This document shows positions 33,545 to 58,497 of a stretch of DNA of 64,000 nt, piece by piece. A program made the translations under genes and the position numbers. Every line of letters starts with the position of its first letter. Position 1 is the first letter of the stretch. This DNA comes from an uncultured Clostridiaceae bacterium (GTDB lineage: Bacteria > Bacillota > Clostridia > Clostridiales > Clostridiaceae), in the NCBI GenBank assembly GCA_963725425.1, contig CAVRYJ010000044.1, positions 132,263 through 196,262 of the forward strand, given 5' to 3'. Below the pieces are notes generated by a model. It was not told the origin of the DNA. It saw only the letters and a list, made by a program, of their open reading frames with translations, and searched no databases.

Positions 33545-35927
33545 ATGATATCAAAGAAGACTTTAGCAACTATTTCATTAGTTATTGCAATGTCAGCAAC
33601 TGTAGTTACACCAGTATTTGCAGCAGATAGTGATATTTATCTTTTACCAAATACTACAACACCTGCTTTTACTAAAGCAGCTACAACATCTCTAGTTAAT
33701 CAAAAAGCTATAGGATTGAACTCACAAAACTATGGTTATGAATATAAGGGTGAAATTTATAATTTTAATGATGTATCAACTCTTTTTAATACTGACTCAA
33801 GAAGTTTTACTCAAACTATGACAGATCTTCCAACTAAAGAAACTCCAGTAGGTCCAGTTACTCCAGCTACTGTTGTAGCTGTTAGTTCAGTAAGTGCTAT
33901 TAACGGTACGGTTACAGTAACATTAAGTGGTACACCTACAACAACACCAGTACTTAGTGATTTTACATTAACACAAGCAATAGGCTTAGGTAATGCTACA
34001 ACAGTAACACCTACAGCTATTAGTACTACTGGAAATGTTGTTACATTAACAGTACCAACAGTAGCAGGAACATCATCATCTCAAAGTATTGTTGATTCAG
34101 CAGCATACCAAAGTGGAACTGCAGTAAGTGCTACAGCTTACAATGTAGCAGCGGTTACTACAGTAGCATCAGAGCTTGCTAAGGTTACTAATGCATCAAT
34201 AGCAACAGTACCTTATGGAACAGATATTACAACAGCTGGAACTGCCCAAGCTACTGTAGAAGGATTAATTAAAATCTTCAGCTCTAGCAGATCTTGATGC
34301 AGGATATACAGTAACAATAGCACCAGGTTCAACTTATAGCCCAATAACAAATGCATGGACTGGTAAGCTAACAGTAACAGAAACTGCAACTGGTGCAACA
34401 GCTACAGATTCAACATACAGAGCTATCACAATAGTTACTGGAGTATCTACAGCAGGAGCAACATCAGAACTTGCTAATATTACAGCAGTAGCAGTACCAG
34501 CAACACCAGTGGTACCAGAAGTAACAACAGTACCTTATGGAACAGCAAACACTCAAACTGCTGTGGAATCAGCAATATTGGTATTAGCTAATTCAGAAGT
34601 TGATTCAGGATACACAGTAACAATAGCACCAGGTTCAACTTATAGCACTGCAACAAAAGTATGGAATGGAGAGTTCATAGTAACAAATAATACAACACCA
34701 GCAAATACAGCAACAGATGCAGCATACAGAACTGCAACAGTAGCTACTTCAGCATCTATAGCAGGAGCAACATCAGAGCTTGCTAAGGTTACTAATGCAT
34801 CAATAGCAACAGTACCTTATGGAACAGATATTACAACAGCTGGAACTGCCCAAGCTACTGTAGAAGGATTAATTAAATCTTCAGCTCTAGCAGATCTTGA
34901 TGCAGGATATACAGTAACAATAGCACCAGGTTCAACTTATAGTACTGCAACGAAGTTATGGACTGGTAAGTTAACAGTAACAGAAACTGCAACTGGTGCA
35001 ACAGTTACAGATTCAACATACAGAGCTATCACAATAGTTACTGGAGTATCTACAGCAGGAGCAACATCAGAACTTGCTAATATTACAGCAGTAGCAGTAC
35101 CAGCAACACCAGTGGTACCAGAAGTAACAACAGTACCTTATGGAACAGCAAACACTCAAACTGCTGTGGAATCAGCAATATTGGTATTAGCTAATTCAGA
35201 AGTTGATTCAGGATACACAGTAACAATAGCACCAGGTTCAACTTATAGCACTGCAACAAAAGTATGGAATGGAGAGTTCATAGTAACAAATAATACAACA
35301 CCAGCAAATACAGCAACAGATGCAGCATACAGAACTGCAACAGTAGCTACTTCAGTATCTACTGCAGGAGCAACATCAGAGCTTGCTAAGGTTACTAATG
35401 CATCAATAGCAACAGTACCTTATGGAACAAATATTACTACAGCTGGAACTGCCCAAGCTACTGTAGAAGGATTAATTAAATCTTCAGCTCTAGCAGACCT
35501 TGATGCAGGATATACAGTAACAATAGCACCAGGTTCAACTTATAGTACTGCAACGAAACTATGGACTGGTGAGCTAACAGTAACAGAAACTGCAACTGGT
35601 GCAACAGCTACAGATTCAACATATAGAACTATCACAATAGCTACTGGAGCAGATACAACAGGAGCAACATTAGCACTTGCTAATATTACTACTGCATCAG
35701 TACAAACATTACCTTCTGGAACAGCTAACACTCAAGCTGGAGTGGAATCAGCAATCCTTGTATTAGCTAATTCAGAAGTTGGTACAGGTTATACAGTAAC
35801 AATAGCACCAGGTTCATCTTATAATACTGTAACGAAAGCATGGAGTGGTAAGTTCATAGTAACTAATAATACAACTCCTTCAAATACTGTTACAGATGCA
35901 GCAAGAACTTTCATAGTAGCTCAATAA
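33545..35927 (+). CDS. Secreted constant-N-module protein with three 603-bp repeats; predicted 5' exon of the group II intron (extra A at ~34272)
   Basis: MISKKTLATISLV...VFAADSDIYLL...GLNSQNYGYEY module; repeat units start near 34167, 34771, 35374, and later units show the correct frame (AAA, not AAAA). Confidence 0.85.
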
Positions 35928-37618: not shown

Positions 37619-37679
37619 TAGCAAATTCGCTTCGCTCGTAAATACCCAGAGTTTCTGAGAAAAATGTGAATTAACAAAT

Positions 37680-38418
37680 AGAATAAGAAGATAGAATCGT
37701 CTGACGTGACGGTTCTTTTCTTTATCTAAAAATAACCACTCTGCCATCCTATTGCAACATCAAGTTAGAAACTATCAATAACTATTACTAACTACATCAC
37801 AAATCATATTATGTATACTAATCTAATATTTTAAATAATATAAATCAATATCTATTTAGTATGATGATTTACATTGTTTAGAATACTAAATAATGTATAA
37901 AAGGAGTATATCTATATTCTTCTCATAATTGTGTTTTCATATACAGTATAGAGCCTTTAATAATTGTTTCGTCTTTAAAAGAACTAAATAAATAAAAACG
38001 TCATCATGTCTTTTGATATGGTGGCTTTTGTTTAAGTAGGTTATTATAACACATATTAAACTATAATTCGACTATTTGTTGATGGAAACATAGGAATATA
38101 ATGTTAATATTTCATAAACATTTAATGACATTAAATAAATATTAGAAATACATGGAAAGAATAATAGAATTATATGACAATAAAATTAGAACAATGTACC
38201 AATAAAAAGATTAATTCACTCACAAAGCCTAAAAAGCTCATTTCACTGCAAAACTTCAAAGAAATTTACTGCAAAAGAATTCTCATATTCATCAGTAAAT
38301 CCTCATTCTATTCATTTCAATAGTTTCTAATAATTCGACACTGCATATTCTTCACTGCATAATCTAAATAATGCAGTAAACCTGTATAAGTCTAAGATAG
38401 ATTAAAATCTGTCTTAGG
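37680..38418 (+). repeat. ~730-bp non-coding direct repeat, copy 1 (begins with a REP-like hairpin)
   Basis: Collinear, imperfect match to 50200-50913. Confidence 0.9.
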
Positions 38419-47843: not shown

Positions 47844-50156
47844 GGTTGTGCTATTAACGCTACTTCTGTAAAAGTAACATTTTCATCAGCAGTAACAACT
47901 GCTCCTACTGCAAGTGATTTTACAGTAGCAGAAAGCGGAAGCAATATTGCTGTAAGTAATGTAGCTGTTGCTAGTGATAATTTGAGTGCTACATTAACAT
48001 TAGCTACTCCATTAACAACAGGTTCTTTTACTGTTAATGGAACAAGTGCAGCTATTGATTTAAGTGCTCCAGTTGTTAAATCAGCAGTGTTTTCTGGAAT
48101 TGCAGCTGGAAGTACTATTACATTAACATATGACAAAACACTTAATTCAAGTATTGTTCCAGCAGCTGGTGATTTTAAAGTTGTTGACAATGGTACTGCA
48201 GTTTCATTATATGGATATGTTCAAGTTAATAGTAATACAGTAGTATTAACACTCTCTAGTGCTATTTCTAATGCTACTGACCCTATTACTGTAAGTTATA
48301 TTCCTGGAGCAAATGTACTACAAAGTAGTTTAGGTACAAATGCAGCTGAATTTGATTTGTTAAGTGCAACAGCAGAACCAGCTAGCGCTCTTGCTACAGT
48401 TAGTTCACCTAAGGCAGTAGCTGCCATTGGAGCAACTGCTACAATTAGTTGGACTAACCCAACAAGTGGTACGACTCCAGCATCATATAACCTAGAGGCT
48501 TCTGTTAATGGCGGAGCATATACAACAGTAGAATCAGGCATATTAAATTCTGCAACTACCGCTACTTATACTGGTTTAAGTGGACAGTCAGTAGCATTTA
48601 AAGTAGTTTCAGTTGGAACTGGAACACCCGCTCCAACTGTTGAATCAACAGCTACAACAGCTATTACATTAGATTCAGTTGCACCAGCTTTAACTTCAGC
48701 TGTTGTAAATGGCAATATTATTACTTTAACTTATAGCAAACCTGTACAGACAGCAACTACTGGTGCAAGTTTCATCAGTGAGTATGGATTAACTGGTACA
48801 GCTGCAACTATTAGTTCTGGTACTATTAGTGGAAATACAGTAACTCTTAAATTAAACCAAAGTGTTCTAAGCACAGATACCGTAAAAATACAGTATACAA
48901 ATGCAACAGCTGGTAACGCTGGCGAAGATATAAATGATGTAGTAGGAAATCAACTTGTGAATGATGCAACTGCAGGTGGTGTTACTAATGACACTATAGC
49001 AAATGCAGGAACTTTGTCTTTAGCAGGTTCAACTTCTACGTCAAGTGCTATTAGTGAAAAACTAACATTGGCTGACGCTACAGGAACTGGAGTTGATGTA
49101 AGTTCAGCAGCTATGGCTTCTATTCAAATGACAGCTCCAGATGGAACTGTTACTACGATAGCACCTACAGCTAACAACTATATTTTGTTTAATGCACAAA
49201 ATACAGCTGGTAATTACGTATTTAATATGACATCTCTTGCTGGGGTTAAATATCAAACGACACTTGCTTGGACAGCTCCAACGTCAGTAGTAGCAAATGC
49301 AACTGGAGTCGTAGATGCAACAAACGGTACAGAATTTGCTTTAGGAACACCAGCTCTTAGTTTAACAGCGAATACTTATGTTGTTGCACCTGATGGAACT
49401 GTATCAATAGCTACAGTCGATGCAAGCCATAATGTTGAATTGAATGGTACTTCTAATGGAACATATACAATTTATACAAGTACTGCAGGAAATGTTTGGT
49501 CTAAATCAACAGTTTCATATCCAAATAGCTTTACGCCTACTGTATCAAGTGCAACTGTAAATGGAACAACAATGGTTCTTAATTATAATGTTGCATTAAG
49601 TGGAACTCCAGCGGCTTCAGCATTCTCAGTTATGGATAACGGTACAAGTGATGCAGTAACCAATGTTGCAGTATCTGGAACTACTGTAACATTAACTTTA
49701 ACTAATGCGGTTCTTGCTAGTGACACAGGTACTGTTAGCTATACTGCACCGACTACTACTCCATTAGTAGGAGTTACAGGGAATGCTATTCAGGCTGCTT
49801 CATTCACAGGACAAAGTGTAACAGATAATACAACTGTTTCATCATTAGTAAGTGCAGCTGCTGCTACTGGAACAAGTAGTGTAGTGTTAACTTATTCTAG
49901 TGCTTTATCTGCAACTTCTGCAACTACACCTCCAGCAGCAACTAGTTATACTGTTACTGTTAATGGAGCTAATGATGCTGTAACAGGAGTAATTGTTAAT
50001 GCTGCTAATAAAACTGTAACATTAGCTTTATCTGCTAATGTTGCTGCAGGTCAGACAGTCGTTGTTAATTATAATAAGCCAACTACAAACTCTTTGACTG
50101 ATGCTATTGGTAATAACGTGGCAGGGTTCTCAAATCAGATTGTTGGAGTTCAATAG
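47844..50156 (+). CDS. Start-less surface-protein segment with SwmB-like repeats and an Fn3-like domain
   Basis: Open frame from 47844 (AINATSVKVTF...) without signal peptide or RBS; ITLTYDKTL...FKVVDNG...VVLTLSSAI repeats. Confidence 0.7.
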   Translation, partial: GCAINATSVKVTFSSAVTTAPTASDFTVAESGSNIAVSNVAVASDNLSATLTLATPLTTGSFTVNGTSAAIDLSAPVVKSAVFSGIAAGSTITLTYDKTLNSSIVPAAGDFKVVDNGTAVSLYGYVQVNSNTVVLTLSSAISNATDPITVSYIPGANVLQSSLGTNAAEFDLLSATAEPASALATVSSPKAVAAIGATATISWTNPTSGTTPASYNLEASVNGGAYTTVESGILNSATTATYTGLSGQSVAFKVVSVGTGTPAPTVESTATTAITLDSVAPALTSAVVNGNIITLTYSKPVQTATTGASFISEYGLTGTAATISSGTISGNTVTLKLNQSVLSTDTVKIQYTNATAGNAGEDINDVVGNQLVNDATAGGVTNDTIANAGTLSLAGSTSTSSAISEKLTLADATGTGVDVSSAAMASIQMTAPDGTVTTIAPTANNYILFNAQNTAGNYVFNMTSLAGVKYQTTLAWTAPTSVVANATGVVDATNGTEFALGTPALSLTANTYVVAPDGTVSIATVDASHNVELNGTSNGTYTIYTSTAGNVWSKSTVSYPNSFTPTVSSATVNGTTMVLNYNVALSGTPAASAFSVMDNGTSDAVTNVAVSGTTVTLTLTNAVLASDTGTVSYTAPTTTPLVGVTGNAIQAASFTGQSVTDNTTVSSLVSAAAATGTSSVVLTYSSALSATSATTPPAATSYTVTVNGANDAVTGVIVNAANKTVTLALSANVAAGQTVVVNYNKPTTNSLTDAIGNNVAGFSNQIVGVQ

Positions 50157-50199
50157 AAAACTCGCTTCACACACAATGAACTTCAATTGGCATGAACAA

Positions 50200-50913
50200 T
50201 AAATAAGAAGAGAGAATCGTCAGACGTGACGGTTCTTTTTCTTTATCTAAAAATAACCATCCTGTCACTATATTGAACATCAAGTTAGAGCCTATCACTA
50301 ACTACATCACAAATCATGTTGTGTATACTAATCTAATATTTTAAATAATATAAATCAATATCTATTTAATATGATGATTTACATTATTTAGAATACTAAA
50401 TTAATCATAAAGAGAATATATTCTATATTCTTTCCATAATTGTATTTTCATATACATCATAGAGCCTTTAATAATATTCTTCTATCAAAGAACTAAATAA
50501 ACAATAGAGTCATTTTGATATGGTGGCTTTTATTTAACTAGGTTCATTATAACACACATTAAACTATAATTCGACTATTTGTTGATGGTAACGTAGGAAT
50601 AAACTGTTAATATTTCATAAACATTTAATGATATTAAATATGTATTAGAAATACATGGAAATTAATATAGAATTGTATGACAATGGAAGAACAATGTACC
50701 AACAAAATAATTGATTCACTCACAAAGCCTAAAAAACTCATTTACCGAAAACTTCAAAGAAATTCACTGTAAAATAATTCTCATATTCATTAGTAAATCC
50801 TCATTCTATTCATTTCAATAGTTTCTAACAATTCTACAGTACGATTTTTCACTGCATAATCTAAATAATGCAGTGAACTTGTATAAGCCTAAGATGGGTT
50901 AAAATCTGTCTTA
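50200..50913 (+). repeat. ~730-bp non-coding direct repeat, copy 2
   Basis: Collinear with 37680-38418. Confidence 0.9.
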
Positions 50914-51056
50914 AACTATCGATAGTGCCAGTAGTGTTGATAAATAAGGCTATAAAAAGTGTAGAATAAAATGTAGTATTCTGATAAGATAAGGGTAAGG
51001 AATAGCGAATATAATAATAAATAAATGGCAAAGGTATATATGGGGGAAGTGAATAA

Positions 51057-51881
51057 ATGCCTAAGAGAAAAGCAAAGAATAAAGAAAATATAGTAGATGA
51101 TAACTTCATAATGTCTCCTAAATTTGATTTTGTGTTTAAGTATATATTTGGAAACGAAAAAAATAAAGATCTGCTAATAGCACTACTAAGTGCCGTACTT
51201 TGCGTTCCAGAAGAAGAATTCGAAGGAATACAAATAATAAATAGTGAACTGATAAAGGAATTCAAAGAAGATAAAAAAGGAATCCTAGACGTACGTGTAA
51301 AAACAAATAAAGGAAAACAGATAGATGTGGAGATACAAATACTACCAACAGACTATATGGCAGAACGTACTCTCTTCTACTGGAGTAAGATGTATACTAG
51401 TCAAATAAAGTCAGGAGAAACCTATGATAATTTAAAGAAATGTATAACTATAAATATTGTAGATTTTAGATGTACACCACTAAAGAAGTTGTATTCTAGC
51501 TATCATCTAACAGAAGATGAAGCAGGGGACAAATTAACAGATTTAATTGAGGTAAGATTCTTAGAGATACCAAAGCTATTTGATAAAGATATTGAAAGAG
51601 ATGAAAATGATCCCGTGGTACAGTGGATGGAATTCTTGGATGGAAAATCGAAAGCTGCATAAATAATATTTATGCAGGGCAGGATGAGGAATACATAGAG
51701 GGTGTTGGAAATGTTATCAGAAAAGAATAAGGACATAAAGAAAGCCTATGATTTGTTACAGATAATAAGCAAGGATGAAAAGGCTAAGATGATATATGAT
51801 GCTGAGCAGGCAGAAATTAGTGATGAGCGTACTAGAATTAAATCTGCTAAAGAAAAAGGAACAAACTCGCTTCGCTCGTAA
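51057..51881 (+). pseudogene. Second Rpn-family gene, split by an in-frame ~42-bp hairpin insertion and 3'-truncated by a REP-like repeat
   Basis: SPKFDFVFKYIFG, ILDVRVKT...IDVEIQ; stop at 51660 inside CTGCATAAATA-A-TATTTATGCAG; frame resumes VLEMLSEKNKDIKKAY (ATG 51711). Confidence 0.8.
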
Positions 51882-52100
51882 AGACCCCCGAGGGTCATGA
51901 ACAAAGTGTGAACAAAAAAATATAAGCAAAGAAGAGAGAATCGCCAGACGTGGTGGTTCTCTTTTTTCGTTAAATAATGATTTATCGAACAGAATTATGT
52001 TAATTGAAAAGAAATAAACCCCCGGGGGTAATGAACAAAGTATGAACAAACCAATAGTAGCAAAAAAAGAATCGTCAGATGTGACGATTCTTTTTTATTC
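51866..52100 (+). repeat. Two tandem REP-like units upstream of the Y1 transposase
   Basis: CCCCCGAGGGTCATGAAC / CCCCCGGGGGTAATGAAC, each followed by a hairpin AGAATCG(T/C)CA-GA.G-TG(ACGA/GTGG)TTCT (51932-51966; 52062-52096). Confidence 0.85.
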
Positions 52101-52165
52101 CTGAAAATAAGCACCCTATGGAATAAAATTAATAGTAATAGTCAATAATCTAGCTAAGAATTATT

Positions 52166-52765
52166 ATGGACGGTGAAAAATATATGTCGGTAAAAGCTAA
52201 AACATGGTATCCTGACACTTCTTATCATATAACTGCAAGAGGAAATCGAAGAAATGATATATTTAAAGATGAGGAAGATTTCCAAATATATCTTACATTA
52301 ATGGAAAATGCACTAGATTATTATGAAAATAAGTTCAATATAGTTTGTTACTGCCTTATGGATAATCACGTTCACCTAATGATCCAAACAAAAGACATGC
52401 ATTATAAATATTTTATCACAAGAGTTAATAGTATCTATGCAAAGTTTTTTAATCACAAATACAATTATATAGGACACTTATACCAAGATAGATACTTTTC
52501 AGAAATCATAGAAACTGATAGCCAATCACTAGAGACTAGTAGGTATATTCACCTTAATCCCATGCGTGCAAACATGGTAACAAAACCAGAGGCGTATAAA
52601 TGGAGTAGTTACTCTATGTACATTGGTAGTACTAAAGAGAAGCTAATAAATAGTAAAAGCATATTGAGTTATTTTAAAAATAGGCAAGATTATAAGACAT
52701 TTGTTGAACAAGGAATAAATCATAAGTATGATAAGGAGATGGGGGAAGTTGGCATCCGTAGTTAA
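52166..52765 (+). mobile_element. REP-associated tyrosine (Y1/HUH) transposase, RAYT/IS200-like
   Basis: YHITARGNRRNDIF, CYCLMDNHVHL (HUH), FQ/YQDRYFS, RYIHLNP, YKWSSY. Confidence 0.9.
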
Positions 52766-54284
52766 TTCATTTGCAATAACAGGAATAGACGGATATGTGG
52801 TAACTATAGAAACGGATACTATTTTTGGAAAGCCTTCCTTTGCTATAGTAGGATTAGGTGATGCCGCTATTAGGGAAGCCACTCAACGAATAGAATCAGC
52901 TATAATTAACTCTAATTTTGAATTTCCCAAAATGAAAATATTGATTAACCTAGCACCTAGTAATATAAAGAAAAGTGGCACGCATTTTGACTTACCTATG
53001 GCTATAGGACTGTTATTACAATCAAATCAGCTCGTAGTAGAAGAGATACATTCCTTCGGGTTAATAGGTGAACTATCTCTAAATGGTGAACTACGACCCT
53101 GTGCTGGTATTTTACCTATGGTTATTGAGGCTAAAAATAATGGGATCAAAAATATAATAGTTCCAAAACAAAATATGCAGGAAGCCGCACTAGTTAAAGA
53201 TATAAACATATTTGGTTTTAATACTCTAATAGAAGTAACAAATTTCCTTCAGCAAATTTCTTCATATAATGACCAAGATATAAGTAAAGGGCATTATATT
53301 CAAAGAAAGTATATGTTGGATTTTGAAGATGTTCAAGGTCAGGCAATGGCAATAAATTATGTAGTCATTGCCTGTTCTGGAGGACATAACTTGCTAATGT
53401 CTGGAATACCAGGCTGTGGTAAATCAATGATAGCTAAAAGAATCCCCACAATATTACCATCAATGACGGAAGAAGAAGCTTTGGAAGTTACTAAAATATA
53501 TAGTGTAGCAGGTTTATTAAGAAATAGTGGATCATTAATAACCGAAAGACCTTTTAGATCTCCTCATCATAATGCATCTACCAATTCACTAGTTGGTGGT
53601 GGAAATAATGCTTTGCCTGGGGAAATATCATTAGCTCACAATGGGGTGCTTTTTTTAGATGAAATTTCAGAGTTCAATAAGAAAGCCATTGATGCCTTAA
53701 GACAACCTCTTGAGGATGGAAAGGTAACAATATCAAGAGTTAATCACACTCATATATATCCCTGTAGTTTTATGCTTGTAGCCGCTATGAATCCTTGCCC
53801 TTGTGGATATTATGGAAATGCCAAATGTCATTGCTCAGACTATGAAGTTTTAAAATATAGACAGAAATTATCTGGACCAATTATGGATAGAATAGATATT
53901 CAAAACTTTGTATCACAGGTAGATATAATGAATTTATCTAGTTGCAGCAAGGGAACAAAATCAGAAGATTTAAGAAAAAAAGTTGAAGAATCTAGAAATA
54001 TTCGAAAAGTTAGATTTGAGAATTATAGTGGAATCAATTGCAATGCACAAATGACACCAGCTTTAATTGCAGAATTCTGTAAGATTGATGAGGAGTCCAA
54101 AAGGTTATTCAAATTAGCTTTTGATAAATTTAATTATAGTGCAAGAAGCTTTCATAAATTCTTGAAGATAGCTAGAACTATAGCTGATTTAGAAGGAGAA
54201 AATAATATAAATTATAGTCATGTAGCAAAAGCGTTAATGTGCAGAGAAATCGATAAAGATGAAACAACCATGGAGGTAGTTTAA
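52749..54284 (+). CDS. comM: ComM/YifB Mg-chelatase-like AAA+ ATPase
   Basis: INLAPSNIKKSGTHFDLPMA, GGHNLLMSGIPGCGKSM, PGEISLAHNGVLFLDE, LRQPLEDG, ARTIADL; TTG start overlaps the transposase stop. Confidence 0.93.
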   Translation: MASVVNSFAITGIDGYVVTIETDTIFGKPSFAIVGLGDAAIREATQRIESAIINSNFEFPKMKILINLAPSNIKKSGTHFDLPMAIGLLLQSNQLVVEEIHSFGLIGELSLNGELRPCAGILPMVIEAKNNGIKNIIVPKQNMQEAALVKDINIFGFNTLIEVTNFLQQISSYNDQDISKGHYIQRKYMLDFEDVQGQAMAINYVVIACSGGHNLLMSGIPGCGKSMIAKRIPTILPSMTEEEALEVTKIYSVAGLLRNSGSLITERPFRSPHHNASTNSLVGGGNNALPGEISLAHNGVLFLDEISEFNKKAIDALRQPLEDGKVTISRVNHTHIYPCSFMLVAAMNPCPCGYYGNAKCHCSDYEVLKYRQKLSGPIMDRIDIQNFVSQVDIMNLSSCSKGTKSEDLRKKVEESRNIRKVRFENYSGINCNAQMTPALIAEFCKIDEESKRLFKLAFDKFNYSARSFHKFLKIARTIADLEGENNINYSHVAKALMCREIDKDETTMEVV

Positions 54285-54285
54285 T

Positions 54286-55347
54286 ATGCTTCTGTATTGG
54301 ATTTGGCTTAGCGAAATAGATGGAATTGGTCCAATTTTAGCTAAAAAGTTATTGGATGTGTTTAGTAATCCTGAAGAAATATATAAAGCTAATTTACTGG
54401 ATCTAAAAGCCATAGATGGGCTTGGCTCTAATGTGGCAAATAGGATTTTCAATAATAAGAATACTGAAAAAGCTAAAGAATTACTAGAAAAATGTTATAA
54501 AAATAACATAGGCATTTTAACTTTAAATGATGAGTTATATGATAATAGATTCAAATACAAAGGTAGTCCCATAATTTTATATTATAAAGGAAATCTTAAC
54601 AAGAGTGAAAAACTTGTATCTGTTATAGGTACTAGAGCTTGTACTGAATATGGCAAACAAGTAACAAAAGACATAACAAAATATTTAATCCGGGAAGGAA
54701 ATACAATACTTAGCGGTATATCAAAAGGTATTGAGGCTATTGCTCAAACTACAGCATTAAAAAATAACGGAAGAACTATTGTCTTTATGCCATGCGGAAT
54801 TGATTATATTTATCCAAAAGAACATAGATCATTGATAGATGCTATATCTAATAATGGAGTATTAATATCACAATATCCACCAGGGGATACAATAAAGAAA
54901 AGCTATTTTTTCGAGACGAACAAAAGAATGATGGAATGGTCATATAATGTAATTATAGTGGAGGCTCCACAAAAAAGTGGTACATTAGCCACTGTAGAAT
55001 ATGCTAATAAAATATCTAAAAAAGTATACGCAGTACCACATAGTATATATTCAAAAGAAGGACAAGGCACTAATAATCTAATATATAACGAAAAAGCAGT
55101 GATGTTTTTACCTAAATTAAAGCCATTAAAACAAATGGATTTAGAAACACAAAATGTAGATTTAAATGAGGTGCAGATAAAAATATTAAAAGAATTAAAG
55201 GATAGAGAAATTAATGTTGAGGAATTAAAACAATCATTAAAAATTAATGAAGTTATGCTATTGAATGAACTGTTTATATTAGAACTTATGGGGAAATTGC
55301 AGATAAAAGGGGGTATGGTTTCGGCAAAGATTCCCGTAGGATGGTGA
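54286..55347 (+). CDS. dprA: DNA-processing protein DprA
   Basis: PIILYYKGNL, SVIGTRACTEYG, ILSGISKGIE, IIVEAPQKSGTLAT, VYAVPHSI; C-terminal winged helix. Confidence 0.9.
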   Translation: MLLYWIWLSEIDGIGPILAKKLLDVFSNPEEIYKANLLDLKAIDGLGSNVANRIFNNKNTEKAKELLEKCYKNNIGILTLNDELYDNRFKYKGSPIILYYKGNLNKSEKLVSVIGTRACTEYGKQVTKDITKYLIREGNTILSGISKGIEAIAQTTALKNNGRTIVFMPCGIDYIYPKEHRSLIDAISNNGVLISQYPPGDTIKKSYFFETNKRMMEWSYNVIIVEAPQKSGTLATVEYANKISKKVYAVPHSIYSKEGQGTNNLIYNEKAVMFLPKLKPLKQMDLETQNVDLNEVQIKILKELKDREINVEELKQSLKINEVMLLNELFILELMGKLQIKGGMVSAKIPVGW

Positions 55348-55370
55348 AAACCCCACGGGGGTTGTGAACA
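55347..55370 (+). repeat. Right-flank REP-like motif
   Basis: AAAACCCCACGGGGGTTGTGAAC, homologous to the motifs near 51884 and 52018. Confidence 0.7.
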
Positions 55371-55448
55371 TAAACAAAAATCGTGAGACTCAAATAATGC
55401 CTATAGATAAAACACTTTTTTCATGTGTTTACTCTATAGGCACCATTT

Positions 55449-55512
55449 TGATGTCTCAACTCTTTTTAATAAAGACACGCAATTTTTACTCAAACCATGA
55501 CACATCTTCCAA
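55449..55512 (+). pseudogene. Degenerate fragment of the constant N-module
   Basis: GATGTCTCAACTCTTTTTAATAAAGAC...ACTCAAAC.ATGACA.ATCTTCCAA matches ~62364-62427. Confidence 0.7.
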
Positions 55513-56167
55513 AGCGTCCAACCAAAGAAATTACAGTATCTCCTGTTGGACAGCGAGTGTACTAGTGAAGTTACTCATGCTTCATAAGTACTATCATCAG
55601 TATAGTCTATGTTAAGCAACAAGTCATTATGAGACTATTGGTACATATGGTTTATAGTGTGTCAATTGGTCTGATTAGGAGTTATTTGAAATTTAGATGA
55701 AACAGTTATAATTAATACCTATATATGAAACATAAATAAATTATATATATTATATCCTTTCAATAGAATAATTTCTATTGAAGGGTATTTTTTAATTTAA
55801 TAGAAATTAAACTTAATAAAGTATGCACAAGTTATATAAAAATTGTATTTATATGCATTTTTTTATAGTCAAAAGGGAATAAATTACTAAGCAAAATGAA
55901 ATTATATAAATAATTTGTCTGTTTTTGTTACTTTTTAGTGAAATAAGATAGAAGATAATATATAATGTATATAATACCTACTTTGAAAATAACTCTACGT
56001 ATTGGAAAATAGTAAATTGAAAAAAAAATTTTGAAGGCTCATATTGAGATAATTATATTTTAAATTTAATTTCAAATTATTTTTTCATGTTAATAACAAA
56101 TTTTTCATACTTTTTCTTAGTGGTGAACAAGGCTAAAAAAAAAATTACACAGGAGGAATTAAATATT

Positions 56168-58186
56168 ATGATTTCAAAGAAAACTTTAGCAACTATTTCA
56201 TTAGTGATTGCAATGTCAACTATTATGGTTAAACCGGTATTTGCAGCAGATAGTGATATTTATCTTTTAAGTAATACTTCAAAGCCTGCTTATACTAAAG
56301 CAGATACAGCTCATGCAGCTATACAAAAAACAATTGGATTAAATTCACAAAACTATGGTTATGAATATAATGGTAAAATATATAAACTTGATGATGTATC
56401 AGCACTTTTTAACAATGACGGGAAAAATTTTACTCAGACAATGAATGATCTTCCAACTGCAGAGACTGCAGTAGCTGAGACTACTACTGCTTTAAGTGTA
56501 AGTTCAGTGAACGCTATTAACGGTTCAGTAACAGTAACATTAAGTGGTACACCAGTAACAGCACCTACATTATCAGATTTTGCTGTAACACAACAAATAG
56601 GTACAGCAAATGCTACTACAGTAGTACCTACAGTTATTAATGTAGTGGGTACAACTGTAACATTAACTGTTCCTACATTAGCAGGAACAACAGCAGTTCA
56701 AAGTGTTGTTGATTCAGTATCTTACAAGGCTGGAGTTGCAGTAAAAGCGGCACCTTACACAGTAGCGATTGATCAATCACTAGTAGATCAAGAAGCAGCA
56801 AAAGTAATAAACACTCAAATAGAAGCATTACCAGCTACAGCATCATTAAAAATAACAGATGCAACAGCTGTAAATGCAGCAAACGATGCATTTACTGCAT
56901 TAACGTCTACTCAAAAAGCTGATGTTAAAACTACAGATATAGCAAAATTAAAAGCAGATGTAGCAACAATAAAAGCAGACGTAGCAATAAATGTATCTAC
57001 AGATGCAGCAGCAGCGGCAACAATAGATACTCAAATAGAAGCATTACCAGCTACAGCATCATTAGCTACAACAGATGCAACAGCAGTAAATGCGGTAGAC
57101 ACTGCATATAATGCATTAACAGCAGCAGGGCAAGCAGATGTAACACCTGCAGACGTAACAACGCTAAATGCAGATGTAGCACAGATTGTTACATTAAATG
57201 ATGCAGCAGCAGCATTAGCAGTGAATGCTCAGATAGAAGCATTACCAGCTACAGCATCATTAGCTACAACAGATACAACAGCAGTAAATACCGCAAACAC
57301 TGCATATAATGCATTAACAGCAACTCAAAAATCAGATGTAAAGCCTACGGATGTAACAATATTAACTACAGATATTGCAAAAATTGCTACACTAAATGAT
57401 GCAGCAGCAGCAATAGCAGTAAATGCTCAAATAGAAGCATTACCAGCTACTGCATCATTATCAGTAACAGATGCAACAGCAGTAAATGCAGCAAATGATG
57501 CATTTAATGGGTTAACATCTACTCAAAAATCAGATGTTAAAAGTTCTGATGTAGCAAAATTAAATGCTGAGTTAGCAATATTGGATGCAGATTTAGCAAC
57601 AGGTGTAGCAGATGTTGATACTCAAATAGAAGCATTACCATCTACAGAATCTTTAGCTTCTTCTGATGCAATAGCTGTAGCAGCAGCAAATAATGCATAT
57701 AATGCATTAACAACAGATCAAAAAGCAGATGTAACACCTGCAGATGTAACAACACTACAAGCAGATGTAGCACAGATTACTACATTAAATGACAATGCAG
57801 CGGCAACAGCAGTAGATGCTAAAATAGAAGAATTACCAGCTACAGCATCATTAATAGCAACAGATGCAACAGCAGTAAATGCAGCGAACGATGCATATAA
57901 TGGATTAACAGCAGCTCAAAAAGCAGATGTAACACCTGCAGATGTAACAACACTACAAGCAGATGTAGCACAGATTACTACATTAAATGACAATGCAGCG
58001 GCAACAGCAGTAGATGCTAAAATAGAAGCATTACCAGCTACAGCATCATTAATAGCAACAGATGCAACAGCAGTAAATGCAGCAAACGATGCATATAATG
58101 GATTAACAGCAGCTCAAAAAGCAGATGTAACACCTGCTGACGTAACAACACTACAAGCAGATGTAGCACAGATCGCTACATTATAA
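56168..58186 (+). CDS. Secreted constant-N-module protein with an Ig-like domain and seven ~66-aa helical repeats
   Basis: ATG 56168 after GGAGGA; repeats QIEALPATASL..TDATAVNAANDAYNALT..QKADV. Confidence 0.85.
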   Translation: MISKKTLATISLVIAMSTIMVKPVFAADSDIYLLSNTSKPAYTKADTAHAAIQKTIGLNSQNYGYEYNGKIYKLDDVSALFNNDGKNFTQTMNDLPTAETAVAETTTALSVSSVNAINGSVTVTLSGTPVTAPTLSDFAVTQQIGTANATTVVPTVINVVGTTVTLTVPTLAGTTAVQSVVDSVSYKAGVAVKAAPYTVAIDQSLVDQEAAKVINTQIEALPATASLKITDATAVNAANDAFTALTSTQKADVKTTDIAKLKADVATIKADVAINVSTDAAAAATIDTQIEALPATASLATTDATAVNAVDTAYNALTAAGQADVTPADVTTLNADVAQIVTLNDAAAALAVNAQIEALPATASLATTDTTAVNTANTAYNALTATQKSDVKPTDVTILTTDIAKIATLNDAAAAIAVNAQIEALPATASLSVTDATAVNAANDAFNGLTSTQKSDVKSSDVAKLNAELAILDADLATGVADVDTQIEALPSTESLASSDAIAVAAANNAYNALTTDQKADVTPADVTTLQADVAQITTLNDNAAATAVDAKIEELPATASLIATDATAVNAANDAYNGLTAAQKADVTPADVTTLQADVAQITTLNDNAAATAVDAKIEALPATASLIATDATAVNAANDAYNGLTAAQKADVTPADVTTLQADVAQIATL

Positions 58187-58497
58187 AGTTCCCCACGGGT
58201 CATGACAGAATAGAAGAAACAAGTAGCATAGAATAACAAGAGAGAATCGTCAGAAATGGCGGTTCTCTTTTATTTGTGCTTGAAATAATTACCGAGTTAA
58301 TATAAATTTATATTAAAAAGTTATATTAAAAAGACAGTCGAATTATGTTACTATTTTAATGAAATATTAAAATATATACTATATAATATATATATGGGAA
58401 ATAAATAAATATATTGTTAAAGCGTAAATGGTTTTTCTGTGTGGTTAATAAAGCTAATTATATAATTAAAAAACATACTCTGGGGGAAATAAATATC

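Follow-up and report, generated by a model that had tools for sequence, protein, structure and literature searches.

Why would a gene of the Y1 transposase type that is bracketed by repetitive extragenic palindromic (REP) hairpins share an operon with comM and dprA, whose products are known for branch migration and RecA loading, respectively? The question is raised by a locus in the window, that is, the whole 64,000-nt stretch of DNA analysed here, which corresponds to positions 132263-196262 of contig C44 of a 5.77-Mb Clostridiaceae genome (G000) with a G+C content of ~31% (positions given without a contig name are those of the window). A first-pass annotation of the window had suggested that the locus could be a self-contained module rather than a competence locus. 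We are highly confident of the descriptive part of the answer, namely that this is an accessory, REP-bracketed operon of a REP-associated tyrosine transposase (RAYT) gene, comM and dprA, that comM and dprA in it are paralogs of the housekeeping genes, and that the operon is exchanged horizontally. With moderate confidence we further propose that the unit is a variant of the REPtron, which consists of a RAYT (TnpA-REP) gene flanked by REP hairpins, and that in this variant the RAYT and the ComM and DprA paralogs would be functionally coupled on REP-marked single-stranded DNA (ssDNA).

Organization of the operon and its REP modules

The unit and the REP modules around it comprise the following features:

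51862-51967, plus strand: REP-A module with the 5' flank AAACTCGCTTCGCTCGTAA, a GC hairpin (51883-51896), ATGAACAAAGTGTGAACAAA, and a terminator hairpin (51935-51962) with a T-run
52016-52098, plus strand: REP-B module with a hairpin (52018-52029), ATGAACAAAGTATGAACAAA, and a terminator (52063-52096)
52166-52765, plus strand: putative RAYT-type Y1/HUH nuclease gene, with the probable start at ATG 52184, where its homologues begin
52749-54284, plus strand: comM2, an accessory paralog encoding a ComM/YifB-type AAA+ helicase (TIGR00368), with a TTG start
54286-55347, plus strand: dprA2, an accessory DprA paralog (PF02481), probably degenerating in this lineage
55349-55442, plus strand: REP-C with a hairpin (55349-55363) directly 3' of the dprA2 stop codon, TGTGAACATAAACAAA, and a long imperfect hairpin (55398-55442)

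The stop codon of the Y1 gene (52763-52765) is located inside the comM2 reading frame, and the two genes overlap by 17 nt. With translation started at TTG 52749, ComM2 has the conserved N-terminus MASVVNSF; AAGGAGA is found 8 nt upstream of this codon. The comM2 gene ends at 54284 and dprA2 starts at 54286, 2 nt past the last stop base and with 1 nt in between. Judged from this arrangement, the Y1 gene, comM2, and dprA2 are probably transcribed and translated as one unit. The first-pass annotation had described both junctions in this way, and it was also correct that yraN, topA, and codY are absent nearby: none of them is present in the window, and they were found on contig C6 together with another dprA.

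The motif CCCC.GGGG.T..TGAAC occurs at 51885, 52019, and 55351, always on the plus strand (no occurrence was expected from 100 shuffles), so that REP-like motifs do lie on both sides of the operon, two upstream and one downstream, as previously suggested. Each upstream motif is part of a ~100-nt module built of four pieces, i.e., the 5' flank AAACTCGCTTCGCTCGTAA, a GC hairpin of 4-6 bp, ATGAACAAAGTRTGAACAAA, and a strong terminator hairpin, and these modules fold with z-scores of -2.5 and -6.0. REP-B forms the left edge of the conserved or duplicated unit, as the homology with a second copy in this genome and with the metagenome locus L004 begins there. Copies of REP-A with 98-99% identity are present at C44:209572 and C44:213551. 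An Rfam scan of positions 49800-56200 returned only two weak chance matches to microRNA families, so that the REP modules correspond to none of the known RNA families.

Identity of the Y1 nuclease

The Y1 open reading frame (ORF) matches the Pfam model PF01797 (Y1_Tnp) with E=2.4e-13 and 50.7 bits, above the cut-off of 23. The HUH motif (H68-V-H70) and the catalytic tyrosine in R-Y127-IHL-N131-P132 are invariant in 16 homologues. The protein thereby carries the Y---NP signature of class-2 (TnpA-REP-like) Y1 enzymes (Quentin et al., 2018, PMC6006769). A search of the PDB with the Y1 sequence gave no match. In a fold search using an AlphaFold model, whose predicted local distance difference test (pLDDT) score is only 75, the best PDB match was the E. 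coli RAYT-REP complex 4ER8 (E=2e-6, template modelling (TM) scores 0.60/0.71), whereas the TnpA proteins of the insertion sequences (IS) IS608 and ISDra2 matched with E ~6e-4 and TM ~0.4 and the IS200 transposase was likewise more distant than 4ER8. The RAYT of this complex is E. coli YafM.

A RAYT is also expected to have its own flanking REPs recurring in the genome, and this was found for the window, for the corresponding unit of Clostridium tetani, and for a solo Y1 gene of the relative G004. The C. tetani unit has the same REP twice upstream and once downstream, a layout identical to that of the window, and the solo Y1 gene of G004 has this REP, as GGGGTCATGAACAAATTGTGAACAAA, on both sides in gene orientation, with 24 copies in the G004 genome. 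Solo Y1 genes of the same clade are accompanied by GC palindromes on both sides in C. peptidivorans and C. arbusti and by upstream palindromes in C. liquoris, and more distant Y1 loci have other palindromes, as expected if enzyme and repeat co-evolve. Based on signature, predicted fold, and flanking repeats, the Y1 protein of the window is classified as a RAYT of the class-2 TnpA-REP type, a kind of ssDNA nuclease by which small hairpin repeats are spread.

A second class of Y1 proteins of ~310 aa, scoring 110-135 bits to the profile, was observed in many Clostridiaceae, where a single genome can hold up to 9 copies; these proteins probably represent the long class-2.1-like type with a C-terminal extension.

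ComM2 and DprA2 as accessory paralogs

ComM2 scores 569.6 bits against TIGR00368 (cut-off 362.4) and has the ChlI, Mg_chelatase, and Mg_chelatase_C domains, i.e., a Lon-like N-domain, AAA+ Walker motifs, and a C-terminal domain, with GIPGCGKS, LFLDE, and the cysteines of CPCG...CHC retained. DprA2 has the DNA_processg_A Rossmann domain (PF02481, 193.8 bits, E=2.7e-57) and an N-terminal HhH/SAM domain (HHH_5, 30.3 bits) and matches the structure 3UQZ at E=1e-29; its score against TIGR00732 (174.3 bits) is below the cut-off of 191.15. All the residues that are invariant among homologues are kept in the Y1 protein (34/34) and all except one in ComM2 (81/82), and the nuclease and the helicase of the window therefore look intact as far as their sequences tell. 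For close pairs, the ratio of nonsynonymous to synonymous substitution rates (dN/dS) was 0.08-0.09 for Y1 and ComM and 0.17-0.30 for DprA, which indicates that the three genes are in general under purifying selection.

The two genes are not the only comM and dprA of the genome, a possibility that the first-pass annotation had raised against its own proposal. Searching the whole assembly by tblastn identified a canonical-type ComM on contig C31 (45% identity to ComM2) and a DprA on contig C6 (34% identity to DprA2), the latter encoded in the context ffh...trmD-rplS-rbgA-rnhB-yraN-dprA-topA-codY-rpsB-tsf. IS copies of contig C44 recur on C6 with 100% identity and on C31, C41, and C11 with 99.95% identity. 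C44 hence belongs to the same genome; that it is a contaminant contig was thereby ruled out. ComM2 is not the housekeeping ortholog, since it falls into a separate clade and has a context other than yraN-comM-dprA. In the housekeeping cluster of this genome (C6:189395-191092) yraN and dprA were observed without comM in between, and the canonical-type comM stands alone at C31:754309-755865.

Distribution of the unit across Clostridia

The unit is not confined to the window. In C. tetani, C. estertheticum, and metagenome contigs, look-ups of genomic context recovered the order Y1-comM-dprA at sites without yraN and topA, and a synteny search extended this to many other genomes. The adjacency of transposase and comM is thus no peculiarity of the present genome, which was the second condition under which the first-pass annotation would have given up its proposal. 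Among 78 loci obtained from a Y1 profile search, a Y1 gene with at least 54% identity is directly followed by comM, and usually by dprA too, in ~15 Clostridiaceae loci. The more distant Y1 genes have no adjacent comM, with the exception of an overlapping Y1-ComM pair in Halobacillus (Bacilli) and of one Oscillospiraceae metagenome-assembled genome (MAG). No ComM above the family cut-off was found in the control genomes of B. subtilis and Lactococcus.

Of 149 sampled Clostridiaceae genomes, 42 have a high-scoring Y1 of this clade and ~14 a second ComM, which puts the unit at ~9% of the sampled Clostridiaceae. This second ComM always adjoins a clade Y1 gene where its position was listed or fetched (the two are 5.4 kb apart in G145). 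A class-wide sample of 399 genomes added units in two further families of Clostridia. All ten genomes that were read contain the unit in addition to a separate rnhB-yraN-comM-dprA-topA locus, with codY present wherever the fetched stretch reached that far. The order yraN-comM-dprA-topA was observed in nine of these ten relatives; in the genus-mate G151 comM is inverted and located on the other side of yraN. The junctions within the unit overlap or have a gap of at most 2 nt in 11 of 14 cases for Y1-comM and in 9 of 14 for comM-dprA.

In this genome, REP-B, the Y1 gene, and the first ~107 codons of comM are repeated at C44:211027-212073, 27 kb downstream and outside the window. The homology starts exactly at the REP, and the two Y1 copies differ at 7 positions, all of them synonymous. 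The repeated piece of comM is dead, with a stop at about codon 61, and is fused to the 5' flank of a REP-A module. An IS3-family element has in turn inserted into this module, with the target duplication TAA. An IS3-family element was observed in two copies of 100% identity, at C44:212074-213575 and C6:606420-607900, each 3-4 nt past a AAACTCGCTNCGCTC motif and with the target-site duplications TAA and AAC, respectively, which suggests that this element targets the REP 5' flank.

Phylogeny and horizontal exchange

For ComM, the unit-linked sequences form one clade (support 98/96) and the canonical ones another (100/99), and for DprA both clades are supported with 100/100. Comparing the ComM and DprA of the unit with the housekeeping copies, as the first-pass annotation had advised, thus yielded separate clades and, in addition, a tree that is not vertical, and together with the paralogy this supports its view of an accessory module. 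Within the same ten genomes the mean pairwise ComM identity was 69% for the unit versus 56% for the canonical copies. The relation was reversed for a same-genus pair (unit 64%, canonical 73%), and a cross-genus pair (G065-G107) reached 85% for the unit versus 61% for the canonical ComM. The window's unit groups with that of a metagenome contig and the unit of its genus-mate groups with that of C. tetani. As the tree of the unit disagrees with the host tree, the unit has moved between lineages, and since sister pairs are common to the Y1, ComM, and DprA trees, the three genes travel together. Solo Y1 genes are interspersed among the linked ones, requiring 5 changes on the Y1 tree; combined with the single clades of ComM2 and DprA2, this fits one origin of the unit followed by repeated loss.

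Putative function of the unit

Judged by analogy with known pairs of HUH enzymes and helicases and by the known roles of ComM and DprA, the unit most likely processes REP-nicked ssDNA for recombination. The RAYT would nick and rejoin ssDNA at REP hairpins, ComM2 would load at or near the nick and unwind or branch-migrate the DNA, and DprA2 would coat the freed strand and load RecA. As an outcome, REP-marked segments would be recombined, or the REP/RAYT unit itself would be propagated. In favour of coupling are the tight Y1-comM junctions, the sister pairs that the three gene trees have in common, the gene for a single-stranded DNA-binding protein directly 5' of the unit in L011 and L009, and the overlapping Y1 and ComM genes of Halobacillus.

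Several observations weigh against this proposal. The score of the Y1 protein against the NCBIfam RAYT model NF047646 (70.3 bits) is below the cut-off of 80. A guide tetranucleotide GT[AG]G or CGTC was not seen at the 5' foot of the hairpins, the feet being GTAAAGACCCCC, AAATAAACCCCC, and GGTGAAAACCCC; their place is taken by a longer 5' flank that is conserved, AAACTCGCTTCGCTCG. With only 5-6 motif copies, all of them within ~30 kb of contig C44, this genome shows few signs of activity. A strict motif search of all contigs led to C44 only and the REP was accordingly rejected as a dispersed repeat here, so the expectation of a genome-wide REP population was not borne out; a relaxed double-TGAAC search of the genome returned mostly noise.

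The state of the genes weighs in the same direction. Among 29 positions that were scored as invariant from a comparison with 20 other DprAs of the unit-linked and canonical kinds, DprA2 of the window differs at 7 and each of the others at 0-1, a loss that the first-pass annotation had not noted. In the motif GID..AH, for instance, D is replaced by E and H by Q, and in FPxRNR R is replaced by T. With its long branch (1.74) and a nearest relative whose DprA is truncated to 196 aa, these changes make it probable that DprA2 is degenerating in this lineage, and the protein of the window may no longer work. Elsewhere, ComM is split, truncated, or interrupted by a stop in G068, G067, G032, G065, and G145, DprA is truncated or fragmented in L004 and L091, and in G137 (L107, G137:C63, 4586-6169) the Y1 gene is directly followed by dprA, comM having been lost. 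Many units are thus decaying, and solo Y1 genes occupy scattered positions in the Y1 tree; the three genes are therefore dispensable and separable.

Alternative explanations

Among the alternatives, linkage without shared function survives best, and even this we consider unlikely. A RAYT would have landed once in front of a duplicated comM-dprA pair, the block would since have been inherited and transferred, and the two paralogs would be spare recombination genes, for example for conjugative or transforming DNA. This history agrees with the general knowledge of natural transformation that ComM and DprA work without a Y1 enzyme in known systems, with the presence of ComEC in the genome, and with the frequency of solo Y1 genes and decayed units. 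It is difficult to reconcile with the overlapping reading frames, which have persisted while the loci diverged to 55-65% identity, with the sister pairs shared by the three gene trees, and with the related pairings found elsewhere, i.e., Y1-ComM in Halobacillus and Y1-DprA in G137.

It is rather improbable that the 3.4-kb REP-bounded unit (~52016-55385) is a transposon in the style of IS200/IS605, in which the Y1 enzyme would move the whole segment as ssDNA and comM and dprA would be cargo aiding integration. As in IS200/IS605, both ends carry their hairpins on the same strand, and the C. tetani unit has the identical layout; the left edges of the second copy and of the L004 homology coincide exactly with REP-B; and the patchy distribution, the varied contexts, and the conflict between unit and host trees would all suit a mobile element. 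A genome was, however, never found to contain more than one full copy of the unit or near-identical dispersed copies of it, the present one having one full and one truncated copy, and this REP is also found 3' of many unrelated genes. The Y1 enzyme belongs to class 2 (RAYT type) and not to class 1 (IS200 type), so that the unit does not qualify as a member of IS200/IS605. No target-site signature or target duplication was found, nor was any empty site, for the search of which the flanks were too variable. In the plasmid and phage collections searched there was no unit-type ComM, the only matches being of the canonical type with less than 46% identity, and thus no mobile vehicle was identified.

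A more far-reaching version of functional coupling would treat the RAYT, ComM2, and DprA2, joined by the single-stranded DNA-binding protein (SSB) or Rpn in some lineages, as a split HUH nuclease-helicase-RecA loader machine. REP-bounded single strands would be cut from the chromosome and fed into RecA-dependent exchange, a kind of self-transformation that shuffles REP-terminated surface cassettes. We regard this as doubtful, more so than the transposon; if true, domesticated RAYTs would serve the cell in programmed surface variation.

That the unit serves in defence (or counter-defence) against phages or plasmids by means of a DprA-like protein, as in ShosTA/PsyrTA, is very improbable: DprA2 matches the PADLOC models of ShosA (E=4.8e-53) and PsyrA and the variable regions around the unit contain Rpn nucleases and small pairs of toxin-antitoxin-like genes, yet these models match any DprA, no phosphoribosyltransferase toxin partner is adjacent, and neither Y1 nor ComM convincingly matches a PADLOC model. 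PADLOC returned no known defence system for the locus, only these generic matches without a toxin gene.

The preferred reading therefore remains that of a horizontally exchanged REPtron variant with coupled functions. How RAYTs benefit their hosts has been a long-standing question since REPs were tied to them, and here one RAYT clade is firmly linked, in different genera, to a helicase and a RecA loader of its own that are distinct from the housekeeping copies. The idea of single-strand DNA editing thereby becomes concrete: does the nuclease pass REP-nicked DNA to ComM2 and DprA2? As comM and dprA can be accessory and transferable, their presence alone is no sign of a competence locus. A literature search retrieved no paper linking RAYTs with comM or dprA, and these genes are mentioned neither in the main HUH survey nor in a paper on a C. 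tetani intron (PMC3919590).

Genomic surroundings

The following features of the surroundings were recorded:

51057-51881, plus strand: Rpn-family PD-(D/E)XK nuclease gene (PF12784, E=1.2e-54; TIGR01784), split into two ORFs in the same frame
51057-51662, plus strand: Rpn ORF of 201 aa
51702-51881, plus strand: C-terminal Rpn ORF of 59 aa
50157-50250, plus strand: degenerate 3' REP/terminator module after a surface-protein (SWM_repeat) ORF ending at 50156
37620-37720: similar degenerate module after an ORF ending at ~37618
58187-58275: similar degenerate module after an ORF ending at 58186
C44:198574-198690: similar degenerate module after an ORF ending at C44:198573

A gene for an Rpn/YhgA-type PD-(D/E)XK nuclease adjoins the unit in the window and in L004, L085, L087, L089, L091, and L019, and also adjoins the second copy. 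In the genus-mate G151 (L085:4044-4990) the Rpn gene was observed to be broken at the identical place, with an N-terminal ORF of ~190-200 aa and a small C-terminal ORF; the split may thus be a retained two-ORF layout rather than a random pseudogene. In one sublineage an SSB gene is located directly upstream of the Y1 gene (L011, 7633-7980, PF00436, E=1.5e-23; L009, read by eye). Small coiled-coil ORFs of ~80 aa were also observed next to units (L001:10283-10534, L087:1162-1401, L094:13621-13887, and L016:3164-3424), and DUF4160/DUF2442-like pairs recur near units in L018, L086, and L015.

Most units adjoin genes for large secreted or S-layer-type proteins or flagellin. Genes near the C. tetani unit encode, among others, a secreted protein of 1,328 aa and transglutaminase-core proteins. 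Genes of such kinds are reported for the 75-kb surface-layer protein array of C. tetani in which the alternatively spliced group II intron C.te.I1 resides (PMC3919590), the likeness being one of gene kind. The tendency of the unit to lie amid clostridial surface-layer and cell-wall protein arrays could bear on the variation of these arrays. REP-tagged surface-gene cassettes had been noted near the operon before, and indeed degenerate 3' modules follow at least four surface-protein ORFs in this genome. The conserved 3' module of these cassettes was observed to consist of a degenerate REP and a terminator, GAGAGAATCGYCAGA...GGTTCTCTTTT. To the right of the unit there is a 65-bp element (55449-55512) that recurs at 33769, 58722, and 62361 with 78-86% identity, in or near the starts of surface-protein genes.

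Comparison with known systems

Like IS200/IS605 elements, the unit has a Y1 enzyme and sub-terminal hairpins that lie on the same strand at either end; it differs from them in its class-2 enzyme, the lack of TnpB and of multiple identical copies, and a length of 3.4 kb with cellular-type cargo. The combination of an HUH nicking enzyme with a helicase is shared with the Rep-Hel protein of Helitrons, the relaxase-helicase TraI, and Rep68 of adeno-associated virus (AAV), a likeness that is a functional analogy only. In contrast to these machines, the unit has separate genes for a Y1 RAYT and a ComM/MCM-like AAA+ protein, and no rolling-circle origin or replicon is evident in it.

The housekeeping rnhB-yraN-comM-dprA-topA-codY cluster of Clostridia has comM followed by dprA as well, with the same protein families and domain layouts. 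The two differ in that the genes of the unit belong to other clades (within this genome ~45% identity for ComM and ~34% for DprA) and are located elsewhere, that the unit is patchy and non-vertical, and that comM is preceded by yraN in the cluster and by the Y1 gene in the unit.

The unit resembles a REPtron in its class-2 Y1/HUH enzyme with Y---NP, its 4ER8-like predicted fold, its low copy number, the bracketing by its own hairpins, and the multiplication of the repeat in one relative (24 copies in G004). It departs from the REPtron in that its REPs are direct instead of inverted, are fused to terminators, lack the GT[AG]G guide, and form a tiny population, and in that comM and dprA are held inside the REP brackets, in one operon with the RAYT.

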